Positions 342 to 62,486 of a stretch of 64,000 nt of DNA are shown here, in pieces. The notes below the pieces were generated by a model. It saw only the letters and a list, made by a program, of their open reading frames with translations, searched no databases and was not told the origin of the DNA. This stretch comes from a virus (lineage: Duplodnaviria; Caudoviricetes), in the IMG/VR virus record IMGVR_UViG_3300035696_002955, positions 424 to 64,423 of that record; one strand, 5' to 3'. Position 1 is the stretch's first letter. Each line of letters starts with the position of its first letter. The position numbers and the translations under genes were made by a program.

Positions 342-426
342 GGTTCCCTTTCTGCCCGCTTGCCACGCTTGCGCGCTGTGGGCCCTTACTGTGTGGCCGG
401 TAACGCTTCCGGCCAGCGGCAGGACT

Positions 427-903
427 CTACTCCTTCGGGTCGTAACTGGCCACGATCTCGTCCTTGTGGTAGATGGTCCAAGCGTTCAGATTGTCGAAGG
501 TGGCTGCGCCGCGTGCCTCATGGAGCGTTTCGTAGTGGCCATGGCAGCTTGTGATGGTGTCATCGTCGTCGTCGAAGAGGGAGAAGGGGTAAGTCTGCAA
601 ATCTGTTGTTGGGTGCTCTTCTGCTTCCTCGGCGAGTTCCTCATCGCTTACGCATTGGCCGTGATCGGCGGCTGCCACGACCATATTGGCTGTCAGTTCG
701 GTGACTGTGCCCTTGGCGAAATCCAACCACTTGTCGCCGACTAACCGCTCGGTGTAGAGCATGACCACGCCGGAATCGTTGACGTAGGAGGTCCGCAGAC
801 TCACCCGGAACTTCTCGCCGGGGAAAGCTTTTAGGCCGAACTCTGCCGGAAACTGCTTCATCGCGTCCATAACCATTGCCTTCTGCTGTTCGTATCCGAT
901 CAT
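427..903 (-). CDS. Hypothetical protein
   Basis: 158-aa ORF with phage-like codon usage; AAAGGGG Shine-Dalgarno upstream. Confidence 0.75.
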   Translation of the reverse strand: MIGYEQQKAMVMDAMKQFPAEFGLKAFPGEKFRVSLRTSYVNDSGVVMLYTERLVGDKWLDFAKGTVTELTANMVVAAADHGQCVSDEELAEEAEEHPTTDLQTYPFSLFDDDDDTITSCHGHYETLHEARGAATFDNLNAWTIYHKDEIVASYDPKE

Positions 904-1023
904 TGATAGCCCCTTTCAAATGTCGCTTTCAAACTTACAACTGATACAATGCACCTAAAGTGATCGGATTGCAAGAAGAAAAGTGAATAATCTTCAACTA
1001 TTTTTCACTTTCGAGGTAAGTGC
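904..1023. promoter_or_regulatory. AT-rich divergent promoter/operator region
   Basis: AT-rich gap between divergent ORFs; imperfect inverted repeat AAAAGTGAATA...TATTTTTCACTTT. Confidence 0.5.
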
Positions 1024-1713
1024 ATGGCATTGGTTGCAGATAGCAGACCAGACGGAGAGCGATATACCCCCACCAGACCCACCGAAATGCCGTCGGAGCT
1101 GTCCTCCTTTGATCGACTCGATTACTGTCCCAACTTGAAGAGGGAGTTGCGCTCGTGCCAGGCTGCGATCATCGTGAGCTATCTCGAAACCTATTTTCCC
1201 CGTCCGCAGGACGCTCAAGGACGGCCATCTAGCGCCCCGGTGACCCTTCTACTCGACCGCATCTCGCGCGATTTGCAGATCTCCCGCAGGACTCTCCTGG
1301 TAACCCTCTCCATACTCGCCACCTGGTGGGGCACAGAAGCGGAGCGAAGCGCAGCGGCACGCACTGGACGCGAGTTTCTCAATCCCGCCCACTCGCTCCA
1401 CGGCAAGCTCAAGCCCTACTCCCTCACCGGCCGAAAACGCGCTCAATGGGGTGTTACATGGCATCTCCGACGTAATTGGCCCGTCCTCAATCGCCTCCTG
1501 AATCTCTCTCATGGCCAGCAATCGCAACAGGATGAACCGCATAGCCCAACACCTGGAAATATCCAGCCGCAGCATGAAGTGAACGCGTGCGCGACCCCTC
1601 AAACTGTGTCGATGCAGCCGTTTGAAAAGGTTTTACTCTCCAAATCGGTAATTGGGCAGGACCGGCGGAGCACGCGATACACGCGCAATAAGGCGTCAAA
1701 GGAACTCGATTAG
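1024..1713 (+). CDS. Hypothetical protein with probable winged-HTH resembling the N-terminus of phage replisome organisers
   Basis: YCPNLKRELRSCQAAIIVSYL...RISRDLQISRRTL pattern; true start uncertain (1024 or 1087). Confidence 0.55.
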   Translation: MALVADSRPDGERYTPTRPTEMPSELSSFDRLDYCPNLKRELRSCQAAIIVSYLETYFPRPQDAQGRPSSAPVTLLLDRISRDLQISRRTLLVTLSILATWWGTEAERSAAARTGREFLNPAHSLHGKLKPYSLTGRKRAQWGVTWHLRRNWPVLNRLLNLSHGQQSQQDEPHSPTPGNIQPQHEVNACATPQTVSMQPFEKVLLSKSVIGQDRRSTRYTRNKASKELD

Positions 1714-1904
1714 TTCCCGAAACGTGCTCGTAACCACCATATATATGATGTATTTGAGTGGCCCTCGTGAAATCGAAAACCGGGGTGCTGGGATACGTCG
1801 GAGGGTCCAGCGGACGCGCCACGGGGCTCCTAGAGGCTGTTTTGAGGCCAAAAGGGACGGTTGAACGCCGGTATTGGCGAAATCGGCCTGTGTACCATGT
1901 ACAC

Positions 1905-2186
1905 ATGAGCACAATCTGGAAAGCGGTCTGGCATTGCGATGTGTGCGGTCACGAATGGCTCAAAACGGACGGCGTAGTGACGCCTGAGACCTGTCCAGTC
2001 AGAACCTGCCGCTCTCGCCAATGGAACAAGGCCGCGCCGACGGCCGCCGCCACCACTGCAATGCCCGCCGCCGCCCCGCTGGCCCGGCCACAGCGCGTCT
2101 CCTGCCCAAAATGCGACACCAAACTGCTTGATTGGGGACCGCAGCACCAGCGCTGCCCTGAATGCTCCCAGAACTGGCCGCGCTAG
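1905..2186 (+). CDS. Double Zn-ribbon protein (CDVCGHEW...CPVRTCRSRQWN; CPKC...CPEC)
   Basis: Cys pairs; ATG 1905 in frame with ORF 1758-2186. Confidence 0.7.
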   Translation: MSTIWKAVWHCDVCGHEWLKTDGVVTPETCPVRTCRSRQWNKAAPTAAATTAMPAAAPLARPQRVSCPKCDTKLLDWGPQHQRCPECSQNWPR

Positions 2187-2583
2187 GTGCACAGTGTCAG
2201 ATATAGCTCTAAGACGATGGCCGCGATGTGTCAATGTTGCCGATTATCGACTCCAATCTGACAGATATAGTGTCAGGACACGATGAACGGCTGGGGTGTA
2301 CCCCAATCTGACGCCTTCGATCTGGATTCTGAGCCACCAATGGAGGGATACCCTCCCGATCCTGACCATCCACCAGCCTCAATCGGATGCGATCGACCTG
2401 GACAGGGAACCATCCCAGCCGGCCACCCTCCGCTCGACCCTCCAAAAGCCGTCCACAAAAAGACGATCTGCCGCGACGCCGCCTTCGCCGACGACCGATA
2501 CCGTGTATGCAAACGTGTATTTTCTCACCAAAAAAAATGAAAAAAAGTAGACCTGTAAAATTGGGAGACGAGGTGAAGAGGCG

Positions 2584-3038: not shown

Positions 3039-3096
3039 GGCTGCTTAGGGTGGAACTGAGCCCGATTGCTGAAAAAATTCGTGGAGGTGGGCGGCC

Positions 3097-3273: not shown

Positions 3274-3304
3274 CTTCTGGGGTGGGGTAGACGGCCTGCC
3301 GGGG

Positions 3305-3820: not shown

Positions 3821-4344
3821 CCATCCCTATCGGAGTTTTTCGCTTTTCGTGAATTTCATAAAATCAATCAAACACACTTAGGACTTTGGCTCAAATCGGC
3901 TAAATTCAAGATTCAGATTGTTTGCGCTATGTCGGCAGGACTCCGAAAAGTCCTGTTTTCCACGCCGGATCGTCCTGCGGCAGCTAGCCGTTTATCAGGT
4001 CCAAGTGCTGTCCACCTGGCGACGGTCACCCGTCGGAACACGCGGCCCAAGTCCCCGTCAACAGATTTTGGCCGGTACAGCCATTGCCTGCGGACGCTTC
4101 AAAGCCATTTGCGCTCTACTCTGTCACTCGTGCCGAGACGCAGAACTGCGCTTCAAGAAGAGCGGGCCGAATTGTCGGGGGCTGTTTCATGGAGCACTTC
4201 ACCTCAGCGAGAAAAGAATAGCACACAGAACCGGTTGACTGATACAATAATTTCAGCGGGGGAGAGGTGGCGCAACTCCCTCCTATCGGCTCTTTGCCTC
4301 AGCAGCTAGACCCGTCCCCCGCGACTCATCATTTAGAAAACAAA

Positions 4345-4393: not shown

Positions 4394-4440
4394 GGCAGGA
4401 CTCTAATTTTAGAATCTGATAGATACAGTTGGCACTCTAG

Positions 4441-5614: not shown

Positions 5615-7549
5615 ATGTATCGGATAATCCGCTTTCTTATCGTTCTTTTGGGGCTCTCAGGAGCTATTCAGGCTCTTGCATCCACGCCGACACCGCTGCC
5701 GATCACCGGGAACCTGGGATCAATCTCTGGAAGTCCGCAGCCCTATGCCGGCATCCTCATTCAGCTTCAGAATTGCCCTAGTCCTGTCACCATCCCTGGC
5801 TACTACGGAATCGTCCAGCAGACACTCAAAATTCAGGCCAACTCCGCAGGACTCATTAACTCGACCATCTGGGCAAACGATGTTATCGACTGCGGCGGCG
5901 CCACGGGATTCAGTCAGTACAGCGAAGTGGCCATAGTGAACGGTGTCCCTAGCGGCACTCCGCAGTGCTACCAGATCACTTCGACGCAAGGCTCCTGGTA
6001 TCTCAACACCCAGCAGCCAGTGACCTGCAGCTCGACGCCTCCGGTCAGTTACGACGGGCAGTTCACTAACCTGAATATCTTGAATTGTGTCTCCTTCCAG
6101 AGCGGAACGTGCACGGGATTTCCATTAGTCTTGGGTGGGACGGGGGCGCAAACGGCCGCCGGCGCATGGACGAACATCTTTGGTGGAGCGGCGATCGCCA
6201 ATTCATGCAGCCTGCTGGCTACCAACAGTTCCGGTGCGCTGATATGTTCCCCTGTGACAATCGCCAGCGGTACAGTCTACGGGCCAGCCTATTACAACTC
6301 GACCGGAATAACCGGGGCGACTCCCTTCAACGGCTTGGGCTACTGGTCAACCAGCGCAGGGCCGGTTGCCGCTACCTCGCACAACGAGAGCACCCCGGCC
6401 AACTGCATCGCGGCGAGCGGCTCTGGCACGGCTTATACCTGCACTACATCCCCCACCTTTGTGCCAGGCAACGGCGATCACATCCAGTTCCGGGCCGACG
6501 TGGCCAACACTGGCTCGGCGACCCTAGCGGTCAACAGTCAGGCGGCAGCGACCATCAAAAAGTGGGGCGGCAGCGGCGCGCTCATCGCCAATGATCTGCT
6601 GGCCGCGCACTGGATCAGCGCCACCTACGACGGTACTTATTGGCAACTTGAAGGCCAGCTCGGCAACGCCAACTCGACTCAGATCAATGGTGTTACGCTC
6701 AGCGGCCTGGCCACCGGGATGCTCAAAAACACCACTGGCACGGGAGTGCCAACCGTCGGCGTCGCCGGCACGGACTATGTCGCGCCGGGGGGAGCCGGTG
6801 GAACCCCATCAAGCCTGACACTCACCAACGCCACCGGCTTGCCGCTCGCGACAGGCGTTAGTGGAACGCTGCCTATGGCTAATGGAGGCGCCGGCGCAGC
6901 CTTGACTGCTGCTGCGGGTGGCCTTGCCTACTCCACGTCATCAGCCGTTGCCATCGGGGTTGCCGGGACCGCTGGCCAAGCCGCTGTGTCAGGTGGCACA
7001 GGCGCGCCGGGATTCTCTGATCTGTGGCTTCCTGTGAAATTTGCCCCTGCGAACTGCAACAACGCCACAGCGGGCAACGGCATGAGCCTGCCCACGTCGG
7101 CCGCGCCCACGGCAGTCTGCCGAACAGGCACTTATGTGCAGGCTGGTTATCTGCAATTCACCGCATCAGAGAGCGCACAATGGCAGGACGAGGTGCCAGG
7201 GGATTGGGACTCAGCCAACGGGCCTTATGTGCGGCTGAATTACACCCAGGCGACGGCTACCGGCTCACAGAGCATCATTTTCACGGTCGCGGCGGTTTGC
7301 TCCACGACGGTAGACGATACCGTCTGGCCAGCGGTGCAGACCTTCGGCACCACTACCACGGGCACCACCATCAATACGCAGTATGTGCAGACCTTGCAAC
7401 TCAACTCCACGACGATGGCCAACTGCGCGGCGGGGAAGATTATTAACTTCCAGATCAATACGGCCAGTGGATCGAGCGCGACAGCTAATCTCCAGATGGT
7501 CACGGTGACCTGGCCGCACAAGACGCCGGGCGTGGCGGAGGCTAATTAA
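5615..7549 (+). CDS. Tail fibre/spike-like protein with an N-terminal Sec signal peptide
   Basis: MYRIIRFLIVLLGLSGAIQALA leader; G/T/S/A-rich beta repeats; LPMANGGAG fibre-type motif; 14 Cys counted. Confidence 0.75.
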   Translation: MYRIIRFLIVLLGLSGAIQALASTPTPLPITGNLGSISGSPQPYAGILIQLQNCPSPVTIPGYYGIVQQTLKIQANSAGLINSTIWANDVIDCGGATGFSQYSEVAIVNGVPSGTPQCYQITSTQGSWYLNTQQPVTCSSTPPVSYDGQFTNLNILNCVSFQSGTCTGFPLVLGGTGAQTAAGAWTNIFGGAAIANSCSLLATNSSGALICSPVTIASGTVYGPAYYNSTGITGATPFNGLGYWSTSAGPVAATSHNESTPANCIAASGSGTAYTCTTSPTFVPGNGDHIQFRADVANTGSATLAVNSQAAATIKKWGGSGALIANDLLAAHWISATYDGTYWQLEGQLGNANSTQINGVTLSGLATGMLKNTTGTGVPTVGVAGTDYVAPGGAGGTPSSLTLTNATGLPLATGVSGTLPMANGGAGAALTAAAGGLAYSTSSAVAIGVAGTAGQAAVSGGTGAPGFSDLWLPVKFAPANCNNATAGNGMSLPTSAAPTAVCRTGTYVQAGYLQFTASESAQWQDEVPGDWDSANGPYVRLNYTQATATGSQSIIFTVAAVCSTTVDDTVWPAVQTFGTTTTGTTINTQYVQTLQLNSTTMANCAAGKIINFQINTASGSSATANLQMVTVTWPHKTPGVAEAN

Positions 7550-9693: not shown

Positions 9694-10011
9694 ATGATTA
9701 CATTCAAGAGCGTTGGACATTTCTTCGCTACCGCCTTTCAGCGCGTAGTGGCCGTTCTCCCCAAGGTCGAGGCCACCGAGGCCACCGTCGAAGCCGTTAC
9801 CGCCAAGATTCCCGTCTATGGCCCGCTGGGTTTGACCATCGAGAAGGCGGGTTACGCCGTGCTGGGCGAATTGTCCGCGGTGCTAACCGCTGGCGGCGCG
9901 GCTGCCAGGGCTAAACTGGCCGACGCAGGACTCGATGAGAACGTAATCACCACCGTCGAGGCTCTGGTTGCCAGCGTGCCCACGATCACGGCACTGGCGA
10001 AGACGCTTTAA
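9694..10011 (+). CDS. Amphipathic helical protein in the lysis cassette
   Basis: AAGGAGG SD before ATG 9694. Confidence 0.7.
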   Translation: MITFKSVGHFFATAFQRVVAVLPKVEATEATVEAVTAKIPVYGPLGLTIEKAGYAVLGELSAVLTAGGAAARAKLADAGLDENVITTVEALVASVPTITALAKTL

Positions 10012-10282: not shown

Positions 10283-10471
10283 ATGACAGCACCGATCATG
10301 AAGTATTTTTCCTACGCTCACCTCCCAGAGAATTTGCAGAAGGTGAGCAAGCCGATTGGAGATATTGCATCCGAGTTTGATGCTCTGCTGCCGGACGGCC
10401 CGGAGAAATCCGCAGGACTCCGTAAGTTGCTCGAGGCAAAAGACTGCTTCGTTCGCGCCAAACTAGCATGA
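10283..10471 (+). CDS. 62-aa helical hairpin protein, possibly of the Acb2/Tad1 hairpin class
   Basis: YFSYAHLPENLQ...LPDGPEKSAGLRKLLEAKDCFVRA; AAGGAG SD. Confidence 0.75.
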   Translation: MTAPIMKYFSYAHLPENLQKVSKPIGDIASEFDALLPDGPEKSAGLRKLLEAKDCFVRAKLA

Positions 10472-12047: not shown

Positions 12048-12545
12048 ATGGCGTGGCCCTGGATCAGCCGCGAGCACCACGCAGAGGTCGTCGCGGCCAA
12101 AGACGCGATCATCGACTGGCTGGGATCGCAGAATGACGCCCTGCGCGAGCGGCTGGCACAGCCCGTCGCCGTCACCGTGCAACTGCCCGAGGGCTTCGCG
12201 CTGATCCAGCCGGCCATTGTGCGGTCCCCTCGGGCACAGCAGCAGGACTCGAAGCCAATCAACTGGGCGAACGTGGACGAGAACGACGCCGAAGAGATGG
12301 CATTGCTGGCGGCACGGGAGTTTGGCCGCCGCGTGAGTCCTGACACGCTCTCCCGCTGGACGATCGCGGCCAAGATCAAGATCAGAGCGGCCCGGCGCGA
12401 CAAAAAGGCAGAAGCGGCTCTCCAGTCCGGCGTCGTTGGAATTGCCGGGGAGCAGCCTGAAAGCGCGGAGAGTCCTGTCAAGGAAGTCAGCGCCTACGTC
12501 CCGGCAGCCGTCCGGGAAATGATTGCGAACGCAGAGAGGGTCTAA
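12048..12545 (+). CDS. Hypothetical protein
   Basis: GGAG SD; ATG 12048 in frame with ORF 11775-12545. Confidence 0.65.
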   Translation: MAWPWISREHHAEVVAAKDAIIDWLGSQNDALRERLAQPVAVTVQLPEGFALIQPAIVRSPRAQQQDSKPINWANVDENDAEEMALLAAREFGRRVSPDTLSRWTIAAKIKIRAARRDKKAEAALQSGVVGIAGEQPESAESPVKEVSAYVPAAVREMIANAERV

Positions 12546-14986: not shown

Positions 14987-16519
14987 ATGGAAACTACTAT
15001 CGCATCTCCCGCCGCCCCCTCTGCCGCCGCCGCGCCAGCTCCCGTTTCCGCGCCCGCATCTGTCTCTACGCCCTCATCTTCACCGGCAGTGTCGAGTCCT
15101 GCCGTAAGCACCCCCGTTACTCCGGCCGCTGCCCCCGATCCCAACACGCAGGCGCTTTCGTCTGAAGCGACTCAGGCTGCGATGGTCGCCGCCGCCCAGG
15201 CAAAGCTCGGAGTGGAAACGCCGAAGCCCGCGTCAGAGACGCCTGCAACACCCGCAGTGGAGACACCGGCCGCCGATACGGACGTGGACGGGGCCGAGGC
15301 CGAGGCCGAGGGTGTGCTCCCTGCCAGTGAGGCGCAGGACACGGACGACGGCTACTCGCTCGAAGAGGATGGTTTTGTCGGCGCCCGCGATCTGGCCGAG
15401 AAGCTGGACGCCAGCGAAGCGCTGAAGGCGGCTCTTCCCGCCGAACTCCGCAACGAGATCATGGCGAATGCGCGGCTGGCCGAAGTCGGCGCGCAGTACA
15501 AGGAATTGTTCTCTTCCCCCGAGGAAGCCAAGGTCATCACCAAGACGGCGACCGAGTATGCCGGCCTGACCGAGAGCTTTGACGGCATCCGCCGCAACCT
15601 GGGCGAAGGGACGACAGGCTTTCTCAAAGCGATGCTCCAAGCAACGGCGGCACGTGATGAAGAAGGGAACCCCGTCAAGAATGCCGACGGGAGCTACAAG
15701 ACGGACGGTTCCGTTTGGAAGATGTGTGAGGAGATCACAAATCGCGGAATCGCGAGCAAGATCATCAGCAAAGTAGAAGCGCTCGGCGACGAGAACGTAC
15801 AGGCGGCCCTTGATTTGGTCCTGGAGAGTGTAGGATTGCGGCCCTCCACCGCGGATCAAGACCAAAACCAAGACCCCGCACTGACGGCTCGTAAGGCCGA
15901 ACTCGACCAGCAGGAATCCCGGATCAAGCAGGAGAGGGAATCGTCGGCCAGGGAGCAGGCGACGCAGTACACCAACGCGCTCAAGACGGAGCAGGCCGCT
16001 CTGTACGAGGGCGAGGTTGGGAAGCTGCTGTCGAAAGCGACAGGACTCGACGACTTCACACGGAAGGCTGTGGAGGACAAGATCGCCGCAGCGTTCTCGG
16101 ATGCTCTGAAGCCGGGACGTGCAATCGCCTATCACCAGCGGTTGCGCGAAATCAAGCAACAGCCCATGAGTCCTGCGAGGCGTGAGCGTGAGCTTGCGTT
16201 GGCGCGGGAGTACACGCGGGACAACCTCGTAAGGATCGCCAGACCGATTCTTTCCGAGGCTGGCATCGCCGTGGGCAAGAAGGTCGGGGAGCGCCAGGCA
16301 GCACAGGCCGCACGGGCAGAGGGTGCTCGTAGCGAAGTCAATGGCGGAAGAGCAGTCGTCCCGATTCAGGCTGGGACCGAGACCAACTCTGCGCAGCAAC
16401 GCGCGGCGGTGGCCGAATCTCTTAAGGCCCAGAACGGCGGCAGGACACCGGACGAAAGCGAGATCACGCGGGCCATCATGGTTGCCGCGGCTCAAGCCAA
16501 GCTCGGGCGAATCGCCTAA
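14987..16519 (+). CDS. Scaffolding protein
   Basis: Disordered P/A/S/T-rich N-terminus, acidic coiled coil, between portal and capsid. Confidence 0.75.
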   Translation: METTIASPAAPSAAAAPAPVSAPASVSTPSSSPAVSSPAVSTPVTPAAAPDPNTQALSSEATQAAMVAAAQAKLGVETPKPASETPATPAVETPAADTDVDGAEAEAEGVLPASEAQDTDDGYSLEEDGFVGARDLAEKLDASEALKAALPAELRNEIMANARLAEVGAQYKELFSSPEEAKVITKTATEYAGLTESFDGIRRNLGEGTTGFLKAMLQATAARDEEGNPVKNADGSYKTDGSVWKMCEEITNRGIASKIISKVEALGDENVQAALDLVLESVGLRPSTADQDQNQDPALTARKAELDQQESRIKQERESSAREQATQYTNALKTEQAALYEGEVGKLLSKATGLDDFTRKAVEDKIAAAFSDALKPGRAIAYHQRLREIKQQPMSPARRERELALAREYTRDNLVRIARPILSEAGIAVGKKVGERQAAQAARAEGARSEVNGGRAVVPIQAGTETNSAQQRAAVAESLKAQNGGRTPDESEITRAIMVAAAQAKLGRIA

Positions 16520-30319: not shown

Positions 30320-30332
30320 TGAGGCACAAAAC

Positions 30333-45762: not shown

Positions 45763-45770
45763 GTCCTGCG

Positions 45771-50204: not shown

Positions 50205-50524
50205 GCTGCTTTACCCCCTTTGAGGTGCATTCCGACAAGGTGGCATCTCCAACATCCCCATCGGAGGTTGTCTTCTCCCCAGCCACCAAGTGACCGAGAA
50301 CGGATGTGAACCAGATGGCCGTGACTCCAAGGGTCCGGTCCATCCAGCGGCAGGACTCCAGAGATGCAGTCGGGCATTAACTTCAACTCGCAGCAGCCGC
50401 CGGCACGCTCGTAAATCTTGAGACGAATGGCTGCCTTCTCGGCTGCCGTGGGCTGCCCGCGGCGCGGTGGGCCGGTACGCTTCTTACGAACGGGTGTCCT
50501 GCGGATAAATGCGGTTCGGTTCAT
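50201..50524 (-). CDS. HNH-like endonuclease
   Basis: ERAGGCCE...HGHLVHIRSRSLGG...NLRWGCWRCH. Confidence 0.7.
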   Translation of the reverse strand: MNRTAFIRRTPVRKKRTGPPRRGQPTAAEKAAIRLKIYERAGGCCELKLMPDCISGVLPLDGPDPWSHGHLVHIRSRSLGGWGEDNLRWGCWRCHLVGMHLKGGKAA

Positions 50525-50955: not shown

Positions 50956-53355
50956 TCAGTTGTGAAATTCGTCGTAATCCAGTTCGGCGGGCGCGTCAAA
51001 ACAAAGCCTGTGGGTGTCGAACTCACAGTCCACGTTGCCCGATGATCCGCCGCCGCGCAGAAGGGCCAAGTTGAGGTTGGCCTTCCTCGTCATCTTCAGC
51101 GTTTCCTTGTCCATGTATCTGTGCAGCAGGAGCATGGCGAAGCAATCCTGCAACGGTTTCTTGCTCTCGCCAATGTCCCCTGCTTGGGGCCGCTTGTCGG
51201 AGAACTCGCGGGGAACCTCGTTGAGTTGGAACAAAGAGAGTAGCGCGGCCTTTTTGTGTTTCATCTTCCTGCGCAGCCGGTCGGAGTTCTCGACGTACCG
51301 CTTGCGTATATCCTTCTCCGAGCTAGTCATCAGGCCAAAGTGGTCGAGGATGAACAGCACCTCGTCTCCCTTGCGCGTCTCGCGGTCGATGGTCCAGCAG
51401 ACTTGATCGCAGTCCATGTCGCCGTCGTAGACCGACAGGGGCCAGGACTCGACAATGGTTCCGATCGCCTGGGTGATGGCTCGGTGCTGCTCCGGGGTCT
51501 GCGCCCATGGCCGGTTGACCACCACGTTGGGAATGTCTACGACATAGGGCACATGATTCTTGAGGATCTCGTCGCGCTCCATTTCCAGAGAGAACCACAC
51601 CACGCGCCGGCCTTTTTGGAGGTTGTAGGCGGACGAACTGACAGCAAAACCAGTGTTGTGAGTGACGACATAACCGTGCCCAGCAATGTACAGTTCACTT
51701 GGATGACTGACTGTAATGCACTGGGCTCCTTGAATAGCCGTCGGTTTTACAGATGAAATTGTCAACCTGTTCTCGCGTCTTTGGTTCTGTAACTTATTGC
51801 GCTTGCGTGGGATGCTGACGAAGTTGCGAAGCCTTCGGTGAGAAATCATCACGCGATAAGCCTTAGATCCGCTTCTGAGTTCTCCCTTATATGGATACTG
51901 AGGGGCTTCTCTCGAAACAATCTTCGCTGTTGCCCCCAACGAACGAGCCAATTCCTGCACGTCTAATGCCAACTGTCTGCTGGAAGTATTGAAGGATAAG
52001 GTACCTCCCCCTTCAATACTCCCATCGGTGTCCATAAGGCCCCGGAGTAATTGCTTCCGCGATCTTTCTGATGCATTTAGATAAATCTTTGGGATGAATT
52101 TTCTTTTCGACCCCACGCCTCTCAAACCAAGTTGTTCAAGAGCAAGAAAGGCGATGCTATGCAGTTGTCTCCTCTTCCCTTTACCTTTCCACGCCTTGCC
52201 GTTGAGCCGGTAATTGTAGTTGTCTCCTACTTTAAGATCGCATCCTACCGGCATCGTCCTTCTTACCTTCTCCACCATCCAAGCATCAGCGGTGGTGAAT
52301 CTACATGATGTTTTATGAGTAAAGCCACCATCACCAATCAGCGCACCAAGCAGCCAGGGATGCAGGGGAAGGGACTCGTCTATTCCAAAATTCCCGCTCA
52401 CTGTGTCAATCCACATCCTCTTTTGGTATCGTTTGTGTGTGAGTTTTTCGAGCACTTGCAGCGTCGTCAGGACACGCGGCGCGGACCATTGACGGAAATA
52501 GACAAGCCACAAGTGTTCTCCGTCGCACTCAAGTGATCGGCCGTCTGAAAAGGCAACTGAGTACATCTTTCTCATCCCTTGGGGGTAAATCGCAGTTACA
52601 AAGGACGGTTCGCCGTCTATCGAAGCGACTTCATCGCCGACCTGGAGTTCGCCGTTGTTCTTCCATCCAGCAGGAGTCTTGATTGGCTCATCAAGACGCA
52701 GAGCTTTACCGATCTTCGGCCGAGCGGCGACGATGGTGATCTTTCCCATCCTGTAGCCGCCGCCAGTCTTTGCGTCGAGCCAGGCGTTGCCCGAGGGGAT
52801 GCAGGGAGTCTTCTTGGTCTGATACTCACTCACCATCCTGTCGAGCACGGCAACGGCAAAGTCGGCTACGGCAGGACCAGTAGACCCGCTAGATGCCGCT
52901 GTAAGTCCCTCCAGTTGCCCCTGGACGCTGCCGATGATCTCCAGCGAGGGTTCGCCCTGGTCCTGTGCCCTCTGGAGCGCCTGGGAGCACACAGCCATCA
53001 AGCGGCGCAACTGGCTTTTGTCCTTGACGATGCGGATGTACTCTTCGATGACCGGGCGCCGCGGCAATCCTTCCGTCAGGCTGGCCAGGTAGCTCACGCC
53101 GCCGATAACGTCGCGCTCGTGGTAACGGTCCAGTTCGGCGGCCAGCGTCACAATGTCTACTGCCCGTTCCTTTTTGAACAGGCCAGCCATGCGCAGAGCT
53201 ATGCGGCGATGCGAGTCGAGGCTGAAATCGTCCGGCCGCATCCCGGCATGAATCTCATCCCATGCCTTGTTGTCCAGCAGGACTGCCCCAAGCAAAGTTC
53301 TTTCGGCTTCGATGCTGGCCGGAAGATCGCTGTCGAATTGGGGAGGGTTGGTCAT
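50956..53355 (-). CDS. dnaB: Replicative DNA helicase, intein-containing
   Basis: PASIEAERTLLG N-domain; Walker A ARPKIGK/T split by the intein; FSLEM, ILDH, QLNE motifs. Confidence 0.95.
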   Translation of the reverse strand: MTNPPQFDSDLPASIEAERTLLGAVLLDNKAWDEIHAGMRPDDFSLDSHRRIALRMAGLFKKERAVDIVTLAAELDRYHERDVIGGVSYLASLTEGLPRRPVIEEYIRIVKDKSQLRRLMAVCSQALQRAQDQGEPSLEIIGSVQGQLEGLTAASSGSTGPAVADFAVAVLDRMVSEYQTKKTPCIPSGNAWLDAKTGGGYRMGKITIVAARPKIGKALRLDEPIKTPAGWKNNGELQVGDEVASIDGEPSFVTAIYPQGMRKMYSVAFSDGRSLECDGEHLWLVYFRQWSAPRVLTTLQVLEKLTHKRYQKRMWIDTVSGNFGIDESLPLHPWLLGALIGDGGFTHKTSCRFTTADAWMVEKVRRTMPVGCDLKVGDNYNYRLNGKAWKGKGKRRQLHSIAFLALEQLGLRGVGSKRKFIPKIYLNASERSRKQLLRGLMDTDGSIEGGGTLSFNTSSRQLALDVQELARSLGATAKIVSREAPQYPYKGELRSGSKAYRVMISHRRLRNFVSIPRKRNKLQNQRRENRLTISSVKPTAIQGAQCITVSHPSELYIAGHGYVVTHNTGFAVSSSAYNLQKGRRVVWFSLEMERDEILKNHVPYVVDIPNVVVNRPWAQTPEQHRAITQAIGTIVESWPLSVYDGDMDCDQVCWTIDRETRKGDEVLFILDHFGLMTSSEKDIRKRYVENSDRLRRKMKHKKAALLSLFQLNEVPREFSDKRPQAGDIGESKKPLQDCFAMLLLHRYMDKETLKMTRKANLNLALLRGGGSSGNVDCEFDTHRLCFDAPAELDYDEFHN
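51655..52704 (-). mobile_element. 350-aa class 3 intein with a LAGLIDADG homing endonuclease
   Basis: Starts ALRLDEP, ends VVTHN/T; WCT triplet (EHLW, QCITV, THN); LLGALIGDG and LRGLMDTDG; lower GC. Confidence 0.92.
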
Positions 53356-53829
53356 TTACGCCGCAGCCTGCCCCGTCTTCTCTGCCAGCAGAGATTGCAG
53401 TCTCTCGATCTCCGACTGGATCTCGTCGACCGTGACTCTGTTTTGTCTTGATCCTGCCAGAGAGACGCCGTACTCCTTCAACTTCCGGTAGAGCGTTGTT
53501 TTGCTGATGCGGATCTTCGCGGCCAACTGCTCTCCTGTGAGCCCATACCACCGCTGGTACGCGCGCCGGATGAACCACTCTTCCATCGCGTCCCACGTTT
53601 CAGGAACTTCCGAATCCACCGCAGGACTCAGCATTTGCTCTTCTTTTTGCTTGATCTGCGCGGCGGCCTGGAAGAGTCTGTCTGCTGTCGCGGTCAAGGT
53701 GGCATGGTATTGGATAATGTCTGGCGGCAGTCCGGGGAGACTTTCAAAGGCCTTCCGAATGCGATGCCAGTCTGCTCCATTCAGGCCAATGGCCATTAGC
53801 GACGTTTTCACCTGCTCTGGAATCTGCAT
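53356..53829 (-). CDS. Fis-like HTH transcription regulator
   Basis: AAKIRISKTTLYRKLKEYG; TGATG coupling at 53829. Confidence 0.8.
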   Translation of the reverse strand: MQIPEQVKTSLMAIGLNGADWHRIRKAFESLPGLPPDIIQYHATLTATADRLFQAAAQIKQKEEQMLSPAVDSEVPETWDAMEEWFIRRAYQRWYGLTGEQLAAKIRISKTTLYRKLKEYGVSLAGSRQNRVTVDEIQSEIERLQSLLAEKTGQAAA

Positions 53830-57274: not shown

Positions 57275-57583
57275 CTAGTTCACCGTCATCTTCCTAGTTG
57301 CATCCGGCACCTTGCGCTGTAACTCGAACGCGGGGTGCGTCTGTAACTCTGCGAGTAAGGTCATAAAGTCCTCGGGGATCAACTGCTGGGCTAAAGCTCC
57401 GATAAGGTTCACCATCATCTGTGAGTTACCATTGACCCGGACTCGCACCTCCAGCCCATAGGAAAGCGGCACGATGACGCCAATCACGCTGTTATCTGCC
57501 TGCAAGGCTTTCAAGCGCTGGATGAACTGGCCGCTTAACTCGTCAAGTTGCGCGACGATCTGCTTGTCCTGCTCGGGTGTCAT
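57275..57583 (-). CDS. Hypothetical protein
   Basis: 102 aa, coupled to both neighbours. Confidence 0.7.
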   Translation of the reverse strand: MTPEQDKQIVAQLDELSGQFIQRLKALQADNSVIGVIVPLSYGLEVRVRVNGNSQMMVNLIGALAQQLIPEDFMTLLAELQTHPAFELQRKVPDATRKMTVN

Positions 57584-59496
57584 AGCCTATCGACCTTCCC
57601 CGCGGCCACGCGGTAGTAGGCCACTCCCGCCTTGTGCGGTGCTTCGGTCCTGTTGTCGGCAAGGATGACGAACGCCTGGTCAAGCTGGCCGTCGTCGATC
57701 ATGGCCTTGACCGAGCCGAACAGCCGGTTGCGCTGTGAGTCCACCATCGTCTGCGCTTCATCTACGACAACCAACTTGATCTTGGAGTAGACGGCAATCG
57801 CGCACTGTAGCGCCACACCGAAGGCAAGCTGCTCGAAGCCGCTCAACTGCTTCACCGGCAGGAACTCCGGCGCCGTCTTGGGGCTCTGGACAAAGAACTC
57901 GTCAGCGTCCTGCGAGAGCTTGGCCGAGTATCCCCAGGCGGCAAGCACATCGTTGATCGTGCCGGTGAACGCCTGTACGTGCTTGGCAATCAACTCGGCC
58001 TTGATGCCGTCCTTGCCAAAGGTCGAGCACAGCGTTTCCAGGTCGTTGACCACCGCTTGGAACTCGTCCTGCTGTTTGCTCAGGCGGTCGATCTGGCTCA
58101 GGGTGGCGTCGTAGTTGAGCGCAGGACTCAGCAGCGCTTCCCACTCCTCGATCTCTTTATTGAGAGCATCGAGGGCGGAGGTATCGGCGGGCTCGGACAC
58201 TTCCTGCTGCGCGGTGGTCAGTTCCTTTTCCAGCCCAGCAATGGCCTTCTCGATGCCCGCAATTGTATCGGTGGCGCGCACCACGCTCTTGACCAGATCC
58301 AGCTTGCGGTCGACGCGCGCGCGGTTCTCGGCAATCTCGCGCTCCGCGCCGGCAATGTCACCCAAGGCCTTCTGCTCGGTCAGGAGGGTGGCTGCGGCCG
58401 CGTTGGCGGACTCTTCCAGTTTTTTGTGCTCGGCGATCTTGCCGTCGATGAACTGGCGGGTGATGGACTGCGTGCAGGTGGGGCAGCAAGCCTCATCGAC
58501 AGGATTCCCCTGCTCGTCCTGCAGCAGCTCGGCAAAGATGGCACGGGCCGCGCGCTGCGCCTCTCCCTCCTGGTCCAGCGTGTCGATCTGGCTTTGAATT
58601 GAGTCGAACAGCTTGCGACCGGCGGCCCTCTTCTCCAGTGCCGTAAAGTCCGCTCCGCTGATAATGTCCTTGTCGATCTCGTTGCGCTGTTGGATGGACT
58701 CGGTGCGGTCGTCCAGGGCTTTGGTCAGCCCCTCGCGCTCCTGCTCCAGCTCCTGCTCGACGCGGCCGACCGCCGTTGAGCCCCCGCCTTTCAGCTTTTT
58801 GGTTTCCTTGGCCGCCTCGGCGCGCAGCTTAGTCAACTTGTGCTGCACCTTCTGCGCGTCGTGGGCCGGCTTGTCCGGGGTGGGCGGTATGTAAATGGCG
58901 CCCAGCGCCGCCTTCGCCTCCCGGCGCGCTCTGTAGGCCGTGTCGTAGACCTGATCTATGACCGCGACAGGACTCTTGGACCAGTCGAACTTGCCCAGGC
59001 GGCTGGTAGCCATCTCCACCATTGCCGGATCGAACTCGTGACTGGTGGGCAGGATCAGCGCGGCCAGAATATCCTTCTGGTCTGTCTTGGGGTTGAAGAA
59101 GTAGCTGGTATCAAGGCAGCAGGACAGAGCCTCGCTCTGCCTGTCGAGGAAAAGCCCGAATCCTGCCGCGACCGCAGACGATCCGTTCTTGATGCTCTGG
59201 TTGCGAACCTTGGTGCCGGGCCCGTAGGTGGTGAAGATCTGGACAGCGCCCTTGGCTGTGTCGATTGCGGCGATGATCTCCGCTTTCTTCGCGCCCAGGC
59301 GTATGTTGTCGTTCGCTCCTCCGCCGCGCTTGTCGGTGTTGGGGCAGCGCGGGGTGAGCGTGAAGCGCAGCGCGTTGGCGAGGGTGGTCTTTCCTTGTGC
59401 GTTGTCACCCCCGATGATGGAGAGCGGCTGATCGAACTGGACCTCCGCCTCTTCATAGGGGCCGAAGTCGTGGAGGGCAATGGAGGCAATCTTCAT
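57580..59496 (-). CDS. SbcC/Rad50-like SMC ATPase
   Basis: Walker A GDNAQGKTT, coiled coil with CPTC zinc hook, signature LSGFEQ, Walker B VVVDEA. Confidence 0.9.
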   Translation of the reverse strand: MKIASIALHDFGPYEEAEVQFDQPLSIIGGDNAQGKTTLANALRFTLTPRCPNTDKRGGGANDNIRLGAKKAEIIAAIDTAKGAVQIFTTYGPGTKVRNQSIKNGSSAVAAGFGLFLDRQSEALSCCLDTSYFFNPKTDQKDILAALILPTSHEFDPAMVEMATSRLGKFDWSKSPVAVIDQVYDTAYRARREAKAALGAIYIPPTPDKPAHDAQKVQHKLTKLRAEAAKETKKLKGGGSTAVGRVEQELEQEREGLTKALDDRTESIQQRNEIDKDIISGADFTALEKRAAGRKLFDSIQSQIDTLDQEGEAQRAARAIFAELLQDEQGNPVDEACCPTCTQSITRQFIDGKIAEHKKLEESANAAAATLLTEQKALGDIAGAEREIAENRARVDRKLDLVKSVVRATDTIAGIEKAIAGLEKELTTAQQEVSEPADTSALDALNKEIEEWEALLSPALNYDATLSQIDRLSKQQDEFQAVVNDLETLCSTFGKDGIKAELIAKHVQAFTGTINDVLAAWGYSAKLSQDADEFFVQSPKTAPEFLPVKQLSGFEQLAFGVALQCAIAVYSKIKLVVVDEAQTMVDSQRNRLFGSVKAMIDDGQLDQAFVILADNRTEAPHKAGVAYYRVAAGKVDRL

Positions 59497-59531
59497 GGGC
59501 AATACACTTTCTGCGCGGTGGCGGCGCGGGC

Positions 59532-59720
59532 TTAGATGCTGATACGGAAATTCGACAAGAACGCGCGATCGGCTTGAGTAAGCCAAAAGTCAAAGATTTG
59601 CTGCGTTGCCTGGTCGTCGCGGGCTTGGAGGGCGCGCATCACCGGGCTATCAGTTTCCTGCCGATGCGTGCGCCGGTACTCGCGCAGCAGGTTTTGGGCA
59701 ACTTCACGAACGGATTCCAT
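59532..59720 (-). CDS. Hypothetical protein
   Basis: 62 aa; start overlaps the upstream stop; GGAG SD. Confidence 0.6.
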   Translation of the reverse strand: MESVREVAQNLLREYRRTHRQETDSPVMRALQARDDQATQQIFDFWLTQADRAFLSNFRISI

Positions 59721-61042
59721 CAGAATGCGATCTCCTCATCTCCGTCTGCATCCCAGGTTCTGTGCTCTTCTCCGGTCCCGTCGTCAACGGATGCGTCGCG
59801 CGTGATGGTGTACTCGACCTTGTTCTCGGTAAGAGCCACGTCCTTGATGGCGTTGTCGATGATCTCGCGCTTCTTCGCCTTCAGGTAGCTCTTGAGTTGG
59901 GTCGAGCCGATGCGGAGATTGAGAAACCACGGCTTGCCGCCGCGCTTTGGCTGGAGGTCTTCGGGGTTGGCGTTCTGCCAGTCGAGCAGCCGGTCCACGA
60001 CGGGCAGCGTGAAGCCGCCCTGGCCGTCCTCGGCGAATAGCGGGAAGGTGATCTTCTGCTTCTCGACAGGACCAAAGCTGTAGACCTTGCCGTTCGCGTC
60101 CTGCGAGTAGATGCTTGCGCCGGTGCCTTCTACGTGCTGCTTGAGCGCCTGGTCGTTCACGCGCTTCATGGCGTCATGCACCAGCCGCCAGTTCAGCCGG
60201 TCGTCCGGCTTCATGTTGGTCATGGGATTGAGCCGCATGATGGGGCACTGCACATCTTCAGGCGCCAGCACGCAGGGACAGTAGGCGCAATGGCTGCCGC
60301 CGCGGGTGCGCAGCGGCATCTGATCGGCCACCTTCTCGTGAATCTCCCGCTGGCGGTTGCGCACGCGGCGCACGTCCTCCATCATCTGCGGAACATCGGC
60401 GCGGAAATACTTGTGCGTCGTGACCACGTTGGCATAGCGCACGAACTTCAGGCCGAACTCAACTTCGGTCAGTTCGGGCAGGTGCATCATCAGCATCAGG
60501 TTGTAGAGCTTGCCTTGGAAGGAATCCGCCGGGAACGCGCGGGGATGCGATTTCCAGTCCACGATGCGCGCCACCTTGCCGCCGGGCATCAGATAGATGG
60601 TGTCGAGGATGCCGCAATAGGCGGGAGTCTTGTCGGTGCCGGGGAAGTCCCACACGTCGCTGATCTCCACGCGCTGCAAGTCGTGGTCGACGCTCCACGT
60701 TGCCTGGAAGTCGCGGTCAAGGCCCATGCTGATTTCAGCGGCCATGAAGTTCTGCCAGTCGATCGTCAGTGACTCGCGGCAGGACTCAAGAATCTCGGCG
60801 GCCTCATCTCCCAGGGACGTGCAGAGGAATTCGAGGTACATGAAGTCGGCCGGGACGTGCTTCTTGGCGCAATGCTCGGCGTACTGTGCGAGCACCGCGT
60901 GAATATCTGTGCCGCGGTCAGACTGCTGGGTGTTCGGTGGCTTGATGCCGTCGATGTAGACCAGCTTGTAGCAGTACTCGCACGCCATCGTTTCCATGCG
61001 CGACTGGCTTAGCGGAGGTGGTATCGCAAGTGCTTGGCCCAT
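59720..61042 (-). CDS. PD-(D/E)XK exonuclease (RecB/Cas4-like)
   Basis: LSQSR...C..C, GTDIH, GILD...IVDWKS, HCAYCP...CP; AAAGGAG SD before ATG 61042. Confidence 0.85.
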   Translation of the reverse strand: MGQALAIPPPLSQSRMETMACEYCYKLVYIDGIKPPNTQQSDRGTDIHAVLAQYAEHCAKKHVPADFMYLEFLCTSLGDEAAEILESCRESLTIDWQNFMAAEISMGLDRDFQATWSVDHDLQRVEISDVWDFPGTDKTPAYCGILDTIYLMPGGKVARIVDWKSHPRAFPADSFQGKLYNLMLMMHLPELTEVEFGLKFVRYANVVTTHKYFRADVPQMMEDVRRVRNRQREIHEKVADQMPLRTRGGSHCAYCPCVLAPEDVQCPIMRLNPMTNMKPDDRLNWRLVHDAMKRVNDQALKQHVEGTGASIYSQDANGKVYSFGPVEKQKITFPLFAEDGQGGFTLPVVDRLLDWQNANPEDLQPKRGGKPWFLNLRIGSTQLKSYLKAKKREIIDNAIKDVALTENKVEYTITRDASVDDGTGEEHRTWDADGDEEIAF

Positions 61043-61060
61043 AGCGGTGGGCTCCTTTCG

Positions 61061-61157
61061 GGTTGAATGTGCTGCCGTCTCGGCTCCCAGAGGAATGCTC
61101 CGGGGCAAGCTGTTTGCTGTGGCCATTGGAGCGGAGCCGAGACGGCAGGACACAACC
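61061..61157. other. Long intergenic hairpin with a perfect 16-bp stem
   Basis: CTGCCGTCTCGGCTCC (61072-61087) / GGAGCCGAGACGGCAG (61133-61148), plus inner GCTCC/GGAGC and outer GGTTG/CAACC pairing. Confidence 0.75.
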
Positions 61158-61253
61158 TGCCTTGTTGCTTGCGCGACCTGCCCGTTTAGCTTGCCTTCGC
61201 GAAGTGGTACGGGCGCATCGTCGGTGCCTCTTGCGAGGGGCCGCGCAATCTCT

Positions 61254-62486
61254 CTACCAGGCGTCTTCCTCGATCGGAGGAGGAGCAGAACTGGTATGGG
61301 TGGGGGTAGGGGATTGCTCAACAGGATCAGGAGAGTCCTGCGGCGGCTCGGCGTCGGGGTTCTCGGCTTGCGCGGCCTTTGCGTGCTTCGCGGCTTCCTT
61401 CTCGGGATCGGTCTTTTTCTCTTCCGTCTTCTTGCTGCTGCCGTCGTTGCGCTTCTTGGCGACTTCGGCGGTGAGCCACTCCAACAATTCTTTGCCGCGA
61501 CCCACATACTTGGCTTTGGTCTTGCGGATCTGAGCCGGGGGAATTTCCAGCTTCTCGAACTCGGCCGCGATCAGCGTGTCCAAGTCTTCGTCTCCGCCCT
61601 CTTCCTTAGCCGCCAGTACCGCCTTCCAAGTGGTTTGCCCCTCGGAGATGCCGGCATAGATCACGCGCATAGTCTCGATCTCGGCGGGGGTCAGGTCGTT
61701 GCTGTGCCCGATGTAGGCCTTCACGTCCTCGATGGAGACGCCAAGCACCGCAAAGGCGGCAAAGAGACGCTTGCGCGCGGTATCGGGATCTATTGCATCG
61801 ACGGTTCGCTGGGTGGTGCGAATCTCTTCCTTAGCCGCTTCTTTGAGCCAGCCGGGCAGCATGGAAAGAATCAGGTTGCGCTTCACCTTGCTGTACTGCG
61901 CCCGTTTGGCCGTGTCCATCTCTTCGGCAGTGGCGCGGATGATATACACGGGCTTGCCGTCGCTGTTGGTGCGCTGCGACAGGACATAATCGGTATCCTT
62001 CGTCCTGCGGCGCTCTACCGTCTTGGGAACGACGATGATCTCGCCCTCGGCCACGTTGCTCTCATAGTCGATGCGCACGGCACGAAAGACGCGCTGATTG
62101 TCGTCCTCGCCCATCGGCCAGAGGTCCACAGACACATTCTTGATGAGCGGCAGGGCCATCTCGGCAAAGCGGATGGTCAGGTCACGGATGATGTTGGGCA
62201 CCCATTGTCCGTTGTTATATTGCCCACCGCGCGGCACGCCATACATGGCGAGGCTGGACCCGTATTTCTTGGGGTCGGGGTCAATGGCGCAGAACTGTGG
62301 ACGCTTGCACTCTTTGAGGATCTTTGCCTCAATCACGTCGAAGTCTCGCGGATGCCGTTCGGACATAACGTAGGCTGATTGGATCTGCGCCTGGGCGAGT
62401 TGCTGAACCATCGAGACGTTTTGTTCGGTGTACTCGGCGAGGGCTGTGGGTGATTGAGGTACAAGTTCAAGGCTGGCGGTTGCCAT
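61254..62486 (-). CDS. Probable single-strand annealing/recombination protein
   Basis: HPRD...CKRP...YGVPRGG...TIRFAE pattern; adjacent to the exonuclease; acidic C-terminus ending EEDAW. Confidence 0.6.
   Translation of the reverse strand: MATASLELVPQSPTALAEYTEQNVSMVQQLAQAQIQSAYVMSERHPRDFDVIEAKILKECKRPQFCAIDPDPKKYGSSLAMYGVPRGGQYNNGQWVPNIIRDLTIRFAEMALPLIKNVSVDLWPMGEDDNQRVFRAVRIDYESNVAEGEIIVVPKTVERRRTKDTDYVLSQRTNSDGKPVYIIRATAEEMDTAKRAQYSKVKRNLILSMLPGWLKEAAKEEIRTTQRTVDAIDPDTARKRLFAAFAVLGVSIEDVKAYIGHSNDLTPAEIETMRVIYAGISEGQTTWKAVLAAKEEGGDEDLDTLIAAEFEKLEIPPAQIRKTKAKYVGRGKELLEWLTAEVAKKRNDGSSKKTEEKKTDPEKEAAKHAKAAQAENPDAEPPQDSPDPVEQSPTPTHTSSAPPPIEEDAW

Follow-up and report, generated by a model that had tools for sequence, protein, structure and literature searches.

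Short DNA words that recur throughout a genome are known from several systems, and each of Chi, FtsK-orienting polar sequences (KOPS), uptake sequences and stoperators has led to the discovery of a machine that reads DNA. Chi words are asymmetric sequences of 5 to 8 bases that are read by RecBCD or AddAB, with GCTGGTGG as the Escherichia coli Chi, and phages such as P1 are rich in the Chi of their host. KOPS are host chromosomal words with a very strong strand skew that switches at dif, HIP1 of cyanobacteria is a palindromic, hyperabundant octamer of the host genome, and uptake sequences (DUS in Neisseria, USS in Pasteurellaceae) mark the genome of a competent bacterium. The stoperators of Cluster A mycobacteriophages are 13-14 bp long and are mainly situated in short intergenic gaps. 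Over-representation and orientation bias of Chi in Proteobacterial genomes are the subject of PMC8022716. Here, we describe a comparable word, the octamer CAGGACTC, in a 64,000-nt stretch (hereafter the window) of the tailed-phage record IMGVR_UViG_3300035696_002955 of IMG/VR, which has a full length of 64,423 bp.

The data revealed that the word is private to the phage, strongly selected and weakly polar, and that its statistics are as extreme as those of an uptake sequence, although only the phage carries it and the defining tests of Chi, KOPS, uptake sequences and stoperators fail. New in this work are the junction between provirus and host, the chance level of the word in the host, the limits of the phage clade that carries it, and a bias of about 62% towards one DNA strand. 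A protein that reads DNA probably recognises the word as a signal specific to the phage.

Results

Abundance and consensus of the word

The window contains 33 exact copies of CAGGACTC (Table 1), 22 on the plus and 11 on the minus strand, against 2.80 ± 1.71 copies, with a maximum of 7, in dinucleotide-preserving shuffles. A first-pass annotation of this DNA had counted at least 33 copies where some 2-3 were predicted; its count proved to be complete, and the coordinates that it gave are confirmed. Under Markov models of order 1, 3 and 4 the word is the top over-represented 8-mer of the record. The CAGGAC core occurs 124 times (55 expected), and a C precedes every AGGACTC (33/33).

A purine at position -1 (30 of the 33 copies in the window), which the first-pass annotation had described as usual, and G or C at position -2 (32 of 33) extend the word at its 5' side. 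Refinement of the consensus on 166 copies pooled from four related genomes showed positions 1-6 (CAGGAC) to be strict and position 8 to be C, with T as the strongest base at position 7 (15-fold enrichment) and A, C and G still 4-6-fold enriched at that position. Among the pooled copies, a purine was found at -1 in 157, G or C at -2 in 142, and C at -3 in 94, flank conservation being limited to positions -3 to +1; the fuller word can be written as (C)-S-R-CAGGAC-T-C. Several one-mismatch neighbours are depleted (0.2-0.6-fold), including CTGGACTC, CAGGCCTC and CAGTACTC at 0.2-fold each, and the transition neighbours CGGGACTC and CAGGATTC are about 3.4-fold enriched, which is the pattern that mutation-selection balance around a selected word would give. 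A literature search on the word itself returned no match.

Selection at silent positions of coding sequences

Genes were called by a self-trained codon model, which covered about 80% of each genome, and synonymous codons were shuffled 300 times within each gene, thereby preserving the proteins and the codon usage per gene. The genome of the window holds 23 in-gene copies where 2.0 were expected, and three relatives hold 39, 37 and 22 where 3.5, 2.9 and 3.1 were expected; in none of these four genomes was the observed number matched by any of the 300 shuffles. Codon shuffles of two further relatives, G412 and G413, gave 1.9 and 2.1 copies against 38 and 29 observed in genes. The excess, whose loss under a codon- and dinucleotide-aware null model would by the first-pass annotation have spoken against a selected signal, persists under codon-preserving shuffles.

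The earlier description of the copies as independent of reading frame holds only in part: all six frames occur, but two of them account for 21 of the 23 in-gene copies of the window. Ten copies read RCA-GGA-CTC, encoding A/T-G-L, and 11 are antisense and read G-AGT-CCT-GYN, encoding S-P-A/V. The favoured frames are built from rare codons (shares within their families of 16% for GCA, 12% for ACA, 22% for GGA, 9% for AGT and 17% for CCT), and the common-codon frame, Q-D-S, accounts for a minority of the copies. The word is used to spell 6 of 12 A-G-L, 4 of 10 T-G-L, 8 of 14 S-P-A and 4 of 7 S-P-V tripeptides, where codon usage predicts about 1%. Requiring the 9-mer, the occupancy of protein-compatible positions amounts to 38%, 44%, 64%, 57%, 14% and 54% over the six frames, the lowest value being that of the G/R-V-L frame (2 of 14), which is slightly odd. 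Because occupancy is 14-64% in every frame, the frame preference mostly reflects the number of compatible peptides. Selection places the word at about half of all positions that the proteins permit. Moreover, the S-P-A tripeptide is in approximately 2-fold excess in all four proteomes (62 in total, 29.7 expected), showing that the word has roughly doubled the frequency of this tripeptide and has left an imprint on the proteome. RCAGGACTC is a signal at the level of DNA, and not a by-product of codon or peptide usage.

Conservation in relatives and limits of the clade

Relatives were recovered from IMG/VR with the 811-aa portal-like protein (62-74% identity). The excess of the word is common to seven related IMG/VR phages, and densities within the clade lie between about 0.2 and 2 copies per kb. 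Complete relatives contain 49, 49, 35 and 57 copies, the reversed control word occurring 1-3 times in the three genomes counted. The word is the top k-mer in G000, G001, G002, G412 and G413, and a close second in G003. Other peat runs contain an essentially identical phage genome, with 2 differences in 20 kb.

Most of the 23 in-gene copies of the window sit where relatives differ in peptide and are therefore lineage-specific gains. Where the peptide is conserved, the exact 8-mer was kept in 15 of 19 comparisons, against a background of 18% nucleotide identity for ordinary codon triplets with conserved amino acids. Old copies are retained at silent positions, and lineage-specific ones are added. 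This conservation at synonymous sites, the lack of which would have spoken against the proposal of a selected cis-signal in the first-pass annotation, supports that proposal alongside the codon-preserving shuffles. In G411 (40 kb, 59% complete) 9 copies are found (0.22 per kb), and none of three conserved-peptide sites keeps the word, silent transitions having led to CAGGATTG once and to GAGTCCCG twice; these losses are the signature of relaxed selection in that lineage.

Beyond these phages, portal homologues were detected in 4 of 401 Acidobacteriaceae genomes; two of the four are prophages, with 25-30% portal identity, 0-1 copies of the word and no other hyperabundant word. The methylase-helicase part of a giant protein encoded in the window (see below) has homologues at 80 IMG/VR loci, and the word is enriched only at those with at least 67% identity and absent at 33-50% identity, including the complete 68-kb genome G414. 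RCAGGACTC is specific to one clade of Acidobacteriaceae phages. No match was obtained in DNA and protein searches of INPHARED phages, in a first profile search of genome contigs with the portal alignment, or in searches of PHROGs and Pfam with the structural proteins.

Some of these genomes and loci contain other abundant words. In G411 (loci L207-L209, IMG/VR contig 3300030503_000341) the octamer CGACGGGA has 20 dispersed copies, divided 4:16 between the strands, and codon shuffles gave 3.7 copies in genes where 19 are present, nearly all of them in sense orientation and in the frame x-D-G-T/I; with 7 copies it is raised in G413 as well, and either a second word or a codon-pair effect may account for it. 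Two loci with methylase-helicase homologues of about 35% identity are enriched in other sequences: AGTTAAC, centred around GTTAAC, occurs on both strands 23 times in 23.5 kb of L191 (1.4 expected), and ACCGCCT occurs 14 times in L205 (0.8 expected), on one strand only. Other phages with the giant-protein module may thus have abundant words of their own. In G002 (L014-L017) the 9-mer AGCCAGCCT is found 21 times, and A-G-L is spelled GCTGGCTTG 14 times, which suggests a repeat inside one gene that is unrelated to the main word.

The host and its content of the word

The record is classed as a provirus in IMG/VR, and the runs that hold it are peat metagenomes. An exact match to the final 40 bases of the window was found in a single JGI metagenome contig (L027), and the first 1099 bases of this contig are identical to the end of the record. 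Its remaining 6.8 kb is unlike the phages, has 63% G+C and contains one copy of the word. Genes of this flank (1-6810) comprise a 518-aa open reading frame (ORF), a TlyA-like methyltransferase, an NAD kinase (nadK) and a polyprenyl synthase (ispA-like). The NAD kinase is 97% identical to that of a bog metagenome-assembled genome (MAG) labelled Acidobacteriaceae, and 77-87% identical to those at the other 79 loci returned, the majority of which come from MAGs with a Terracidiphilus or Acidobacteriaceae label. The bog MAG is free of the prophage, and the flank aligns to it at 89.6%, starting about 130 bp past the integrase. By these sequence matches, the window is assigned as a provirus joined to the DNA of an Acidobacteriaceae (Terracidiphilus-like) host. 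No tRNA genes were found in the window or the host flank. Two other clues to the host were discarded, since the GroEL of the phage belongs to a viral lineage and plasmid homologues of the helicase are widespread and uninformative.

Five host-like genomes of 2.7-5.8 Mb contain 66, 88, 96, 106 and 139 copies of the word, against 34, 89, 90, 91 and 131 of the reversed control, and all 401 sampled genomes of the Acidobacteriaceae contain RCAGGACTC roughly as often as the control, a set that includes five unpublished genomes (G278, G257, G012, G035 and G183) on which this statement does not depend. Among the genomes inspected, the three with the largest excess over the control, which was twofold, have dispersed copies, and word-rich islands were not found. 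In 1.36 Mb of host DNA, 55 copies are present against 37.8 expected, and CAGGAC and GGACTC occur at 1.0-1.2 times expectation. The host density of 0.04 per kb compares with 0.5-1.2 per kb in the phages, the word being some 13-40 times denser in the prophage and its close relatives than in the host chromosome. For the sampled hosts these data refute the notion, raised in the first-pass annotation, that the phage mimics a genome-wide motif of its host: the phage has not copied the word from an uptake sequence, a Chi, a KOPS or a methylation motif of the host. The suggested relation to GANTC found no support either, as GACTC outside the word is about as scarce in four of the five full phage genomes (ratio of observed to expected counts about 0.5-0.6) as in the host (0.63), G003 being closer to expectation at 0.9; neither enrichment nor avoidance of GANTC was detected beyond host composition.

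Strand polarity

With all genomes placed in the orientation of the window, 164 copies are located on the plus and 101 on the minus strand (about 62%). By DNA strand, the ratio is 82:45 in plus-strand genes and 40:29 in minus-strand genes, which lean to antisense copies; because a pure sense preference predicts about 35% in minus-strand genes, the bias follows the DNA strand and not gene sense. The overall ratio of sense to antisense copies is approximately 57:43, and the counts in four genomes are 11:12, 22:17, 23:14 and 10:12. Since both gene directions favour the same DNA strand, the earlier observation that orientation does not follow transcription is confirmed. A polarity switch at about 12.3 and 38 kb, suggested by eye in the window, was not reproduced in G001, and regular spacing of the copies was rejected (coefficient of variation near 1).

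Candidate readers among the conserved proteins

Proteins kept in every word-rich genome are a giant 4322-aa protein, an SbcC-like ATPase, a PD-(D/E)XK exonuclease, p410, terminase pieces, GroEL and GroES. They were not found in the word-free relatives G116 and G062, and G414 keeps a giant-protein homologue of 46% identity. The giant protein combines an amino-methyltransferase-like motif IV (NPPF at residue 2033) with a Strawberry-notch-type superfamily 2 (SF2) helicase (residues about 2348-2953), and this methylase-helicase module is its best-conserved part (70-72% identity). The methylase-like domain spans about 260 residues, with no evident target-recognition domain and no match to a Pfam methylase. 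The long ORFs 59720-61507 and 61254-62486, both on the minus strand, overlap by 254 nt; the true start of the exonuclease is probably located downstream of the first in-frame start codon, because relatives align to it only from about residue 150. A structure model of p410 (pLDDT 60) had no significant fold match in the PDB, with only a faint row for a Sak-type annealase.

Several other proteins were considered as readers and rejected. The Fis-like helix-turn-helix (HTH) protein (HTH-168, 53356-53862), to which the first-pass annotation had pointed, has no homologue in G001-G003 and is hence unsupported; the same distribution argues against the integrase, and p213 is missing from the densest genome, G413. 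The HNH protein is excluded by its distribution and resembles an endonuclease VII-type resolvase; the corresponding place in G411 is occupied by an ORF judged, by eye and from its sequence alone, to be RusA-like. Neither a tyrosine nor a serine recombinase could be detected in the complete word-rich relatives, which argues against a role tied to lysogeny, and no conserved HTH protein that could be an immunity repressor was found among the relatives.

RecC was not found in five host genomes, and for AddB the host has only a weakly AddB-like ORF below the family cut-off. The phage has no recognisable AddB or RecC beside its SbcC-like ATPase and PD-(D/E)XK exonuclease.

Discussion

Comparison with known genome-wide words

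The word shares with Chi that it is short, asymmetric and present both in and between genes, that it favours one strand regardless of gene direction, and that more copies appear to be better; its density is like the Chi density reported for phage P1. It differs from Chi in not being over-represented in the host chromosome. As the host lacks an excess of the word, RecC was not found and AddB is weak, any reader would be encoded by the phage, and to our knowledge there is no precedent for a phage-encoded reader of the Chi type.

The resemblance to uptake sequences, as described in PMC2817400, extends to the density of about 1 copy per kb (0.5-2 copies per kb here), both orientations, the use of frames that encode common tripeptides and the imprint on the proteome, as well as to graded flanks around a core and to the terminator-like hairpins that inverted pairs occasionally form. 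However, uptake sequences belong to the bacterium, in which they number hundreds to thousands, and here the bacterium is without the word, the 66-139 copies per 2.7-5.8 Mb being close to the control.

Like stoperators, the word is phage-specific and asymmetric, with tens of copies throughout the phage genome and not in the host; sequence and number of stoperators vary between related phages (PMC6550527, PMC9283540). Stoperators keep one main orientation relative to transcription (PMC6550527), which is not observed here. Furthermore, stoperators require an immunity repressor, whereas the present word, of 9-11 nt, lies mainly within genes at silent positions and occurs in relatives without a detectable integrase.

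KOPS and SRS, the words of FtsK and SpoIIIE, are resembled insofar as an asymmetric 8-mer would orient a double-stranded DNA translocase and the giant protein carries an SF2 helicase, but a skew of about 62% (55-78% per genome) without a conserved switch differs from that of KOPS. HIP1 likewise is a hyperabundant octamer at silent codon positions with proposed links to methylases; the phage word, in contrast, is non-palindromic and not enriched in the host. Finally, targets of restriction-modification or bacteriophage exclusion (BREX) systems are usually avoided by phages, and this word is enriched.

A possible sequence tag read by a DNA-tracking enzyme

The function that fits best is one in which each additional copy would help and the strand would count. 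This points to a tag for an enzyme that travels on the DNA, and our leading, though tentative, interpretation is that the word is a Chi-like tag of 'self' read by a phage-encoded DNA-tracking enzyme. Such an enzyme would move along the phage DNA and recognise the asymmetric word, upon which it would change its behaviour, either by ceasing degradation or by loading. Word-rich phage DNA would thereby be spared or processed, and word-poor DNA of the host or a competitor would not. Two candidates for the reader, chosen because they are present in every word-rich genome and were not found in word-free relatives, are the helicase portion of the giant virion protein and the SbcC-like ATPase together with the PD-(D/E)XK exonuclease. 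A function for which more copies are better would also explain the near-saturation of permitted positions and the speed with which density increases and decreases among close relatives.

More specifically, although this is doubtful, a clade of soil phages may mark its own DNA by sequence instead of chemical modification, with a phage-encoded nuclease-helicase or ejected translocase reading the private nine-base word and the density of the word following gain and loss of the reader. If true, phages would own a counterpart of the Chi system by which bacteria mark 'self', and a nuclease or translocase as the reader would imply virus-owned discrimination of self and non-self by sequence. With a host that is known, from the dominant and poorly studied soil group Acidobacteriaceae, and that is without the word, the search for the reader is narrowed to a handful of conserved phage proteins. 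The word is, in addition, a practical marker for members of the clade in soil metagenomes.

Several findings weigh against such a tracked tag. The strand bias is modest (55-78% per genome) and counts from related genomes are not independent; inspection of the word positions by eye revealed no conserved polarity switch along the genome, and the Poisson-like spacing gives no sign of selection for even coverage. Co-occurrence of the word with the candidate genes is inseparable from shared ancestry, and G411, of which 59% of the genome is available, keeps all candidate genes yet loses the word. As to the exonuclease, a profile search beyond the clade found it only inside the clade, no helicase or Chi-scanning domain is detectable in it, PDB sequence searches yielded no relative, and its structure model (pLDDT 37.5) was unusable.

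Alternative explanations

A rather doubtful alternative is that the word is the multi-copy site of a phage DNA-binding protein, such as a stoperator-like repressor, an organiser or condenser of the genome, or a replication or packaging factor dependent on many sites, with a monomer reading the double-stranded DNA. An asymmetric word of 9-11 nt with 33-57 copies across the phage and none beyond chance in the host is numerically similar to stoperators, and PMC9283540 describes a monomeric repressor with an asymmetric recognition sequence and numerous sites across a phage genome; the graded tolerance at position 7 and in the flanks, and the one hairpin built from the word, are also consistent with such a protein. 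Yet stoperators mostly keep one orientation relative to transcription (PMC6550527), where the present copies are divided about 57:43 and follow the DNA strand, a bias that is unexpected for simple binding. As neither a tyrosine nor a serine recombinase is detectable in complete word-rich relatives, the role of a lysogeny repressor is improbable as a general one. The relatives lack a homologue of the single HTH protein seen (53356-53862), and p213 is excluded as a reader as well. We consider it unlikely that the word is the target or loading site of the methyltransferase-helicase of the giant protein, the option that the first-pass annotation had listed first. In that case, either the enzyme would methylate A5 of CAGGAC, or the word would be where the helicase loads on incoming DNA. 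CAGGAC is a six-base asymmetric sequence with A as its fifth base, a format typical of the sites of MmeI-type and BREX methylases, the NPPF motif is present, and the word was seen only where this module, the best-conserved part of the protein, is at least 67% identical. Methylation alone, however, gives no reason to multiply sites, and restriction-type targets are usually avoided. The short methylase-like domain without evident recognition domain or Pfam match also speaks against it, as do the homologues of 33-50% identity, including complete 68-kb genomes of similar layout, that have no word and mostly no hyperabundant word, and G411, which retains the module at 67% identity while losing the word.

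Molecular drive, as proposed for uptake sequences, appears quite improbable here; in this scenario biased repair, gene conversion or recombination would favour the transmission of word-bearing alleles in mixed infections, and the phage would gain nothing from it. The statistics of the word, in density, orientation, tripeptides and proteome imprint, resemble those of uptake sequences (compare PMC2817400), near-cognate words are depleted, and density varies 10-fold among close relatives; even so, drive would still require a word-specific enzyme, so that the need for a reader remains, and there is no candidate mismatch endonuclease, the HNH protein looking endonuclease VII-type and its replacement in G411 RusA-like by eye. 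Copying of a host-abundant word, be it an uptake sequence, host Chi, KOPS or a methylation motif such as GANTC, was plausible beforehand from the density and the two orientations, which resemble uptake sequences, and from Chi-rich phages such as P1. For the sampled hosts this is refuted, with very little probability left to it, by the host as identified through the provirus junction, by the near-control levels in the five host-like genomes, the 401 family genomes and the 1.36 Mb of host DNA, and by the equal frequency of GACTC outside the word in phage and host. Likewise refuted, and of negligible probability, is an artefact of codon usage, dipeptides or repeats, for which the preferred codon pair CAG-GAC and the strong frame preference could be adduced. 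Codon-preserving shuffles never came near the observed counts, the favoured frames consist of rare codons with the common-codon Q-D-S frame being minor, flanks are unconserved beyond -3 to +1, and intergenic copies exist too.

Features of the window

Coordinates of all copies and of the principal genes are given in Table 1. The inverted pair at 3936-3955 that was reported in the first-pass annotation is real, and because TTTT follows, it looks like a terminator hairpin built from the word. Two copies had been placed on stop codons, which holds for the copy at 45761, whereas the copy at 420-427 shares no more than one base with the stop of the minus-strand ORF.

Table 1. Positions of CAGGACTC copies and principal genes in the window
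Feature	Position	Strand	Remarks
copy	420..427	+	Q-D-S frame of ORF 24-554; abuts stop of minus-strand ORF 427-903
copy	1287..1294	+	R-T-L frame of ORF 1024-1713
copy (3936-3943) and inverted 7-mer AGTCCTG, then TTTT	3936..3955	+	terminator-like hairpin
copy	4396..4403	+	intergenic
copy	5847..5854	+	sense, A-G-L
copy	9926..9933	+	sense, A-G-L
copy	10413..10420	+	sense, A-G-L
copy	12243..12250	+	uncalled stretch upstream of 811-aa portal-like gene
copy	12335..12342	-	uncalled stretch upstream of 811-aa portal-like gene
copy	12470..12477	-	uncalled stretch upstream of 811-aa portal-like gene
copy	15094..15101	-	antisense, S-P-A
copy	16041..16048	+	sense, T-G-L
copy	16168..16175	-	antisense, S-P-A
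copy	18320..18327	+	sense, T-G-L; kept in G001
copy	23170..23177	+	sense, A-G-L; kept in 3 relatives
copy	25984..25991	+	sense, T-G-L; kept in 3 relatives; decayed to CAGGATTG in G411
copy	31478..31485	-	antisense in giant gene, S-P-E
copy	31760..31767	-	antisense, S-P-A
copy	32021..32028	-	antisense, S-P-A
copy	35753..35760	-	antisense, S-P-A
copy	36650..36657	-	antisense, S-P-V; kept in G003
copy	39670..39677	+	sense, T-G-L; kept in G003
copy	40417..40424	+	sense, A-G-L
copy	43070..43077	-	antisense, S-P-V
copy	45599..45606	+	sense, A-G-L
copy	45761..45768	-	overlaps TGA stop (45760-45762) of ORF 44569-45762
copy	50351..50358	+	antisense to minus-strand gene, G-V-L frame (rare frame)
copy	51443..51450	+	antisense in DnaB gene, E-S-W
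copy	53622..53629	+	antisense, S-P-A
copy	58122..58129	+	antisense in SbcC-like gene, S-P-A; kept in 3 relatives
copy	58968..58975	+	antisense in SbcC-like gene, S-P-V; kept in 3 relatives; GAGTCCCG in G411
copy	60780..60787	+	antisense in PD-(D/E)XK gene, E-S-C
copy	61333..61340	-	sense, Q-D-S in ORF 61254-62486
giant 4322-aa protein	30240..43208	+	candidate reader; conserved in every motif-rich relative
SbcC-like ATPase	57580..59586	-	candidate reader module; conserved in every motif-rich relative; not found in motif-free relatives
PD-(D/E)XK exonuclease	59720..61507	-	same distribution among relatives as SbcC
tyrosine integrase at provirus end	62909..64000	+	host DNA starts about 130 bp beyond, on L027

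Besides these features, the DnaB-type helicase (50956-53355, minus strand) contains a LAGLIDADG/Hom_end intein-like insert at residues about 431-513. At 49425-50204 (minus strand) a dCMP deaminase is fused to a domain that is weakly similar to the N-terminal domain of dATP/dGTP diphosphohydrolase (E = 0.0013), which hints at altered nucleotide metabolism. A protein with a Tad2-like anti-Thoeris domain adjoins the phage GroEL and a GroES-like gene (46195-46788, 46839-48653 and 48604-48948, all on the minus strand), and this GroEL groups with viral chaperonins. A further sequence, AGAGTACCA (equivalent to TGGTACTCT), has 6 copies in the window where 0.27 were expected. The region 9228-9372 is matched in all four peat runs by far deeper contigs (up to 90 versus about 7), which omit 81 bases (9257-9339) and then enter unrelated sequence; it appears to be a short segment in common with a far more abundant element.

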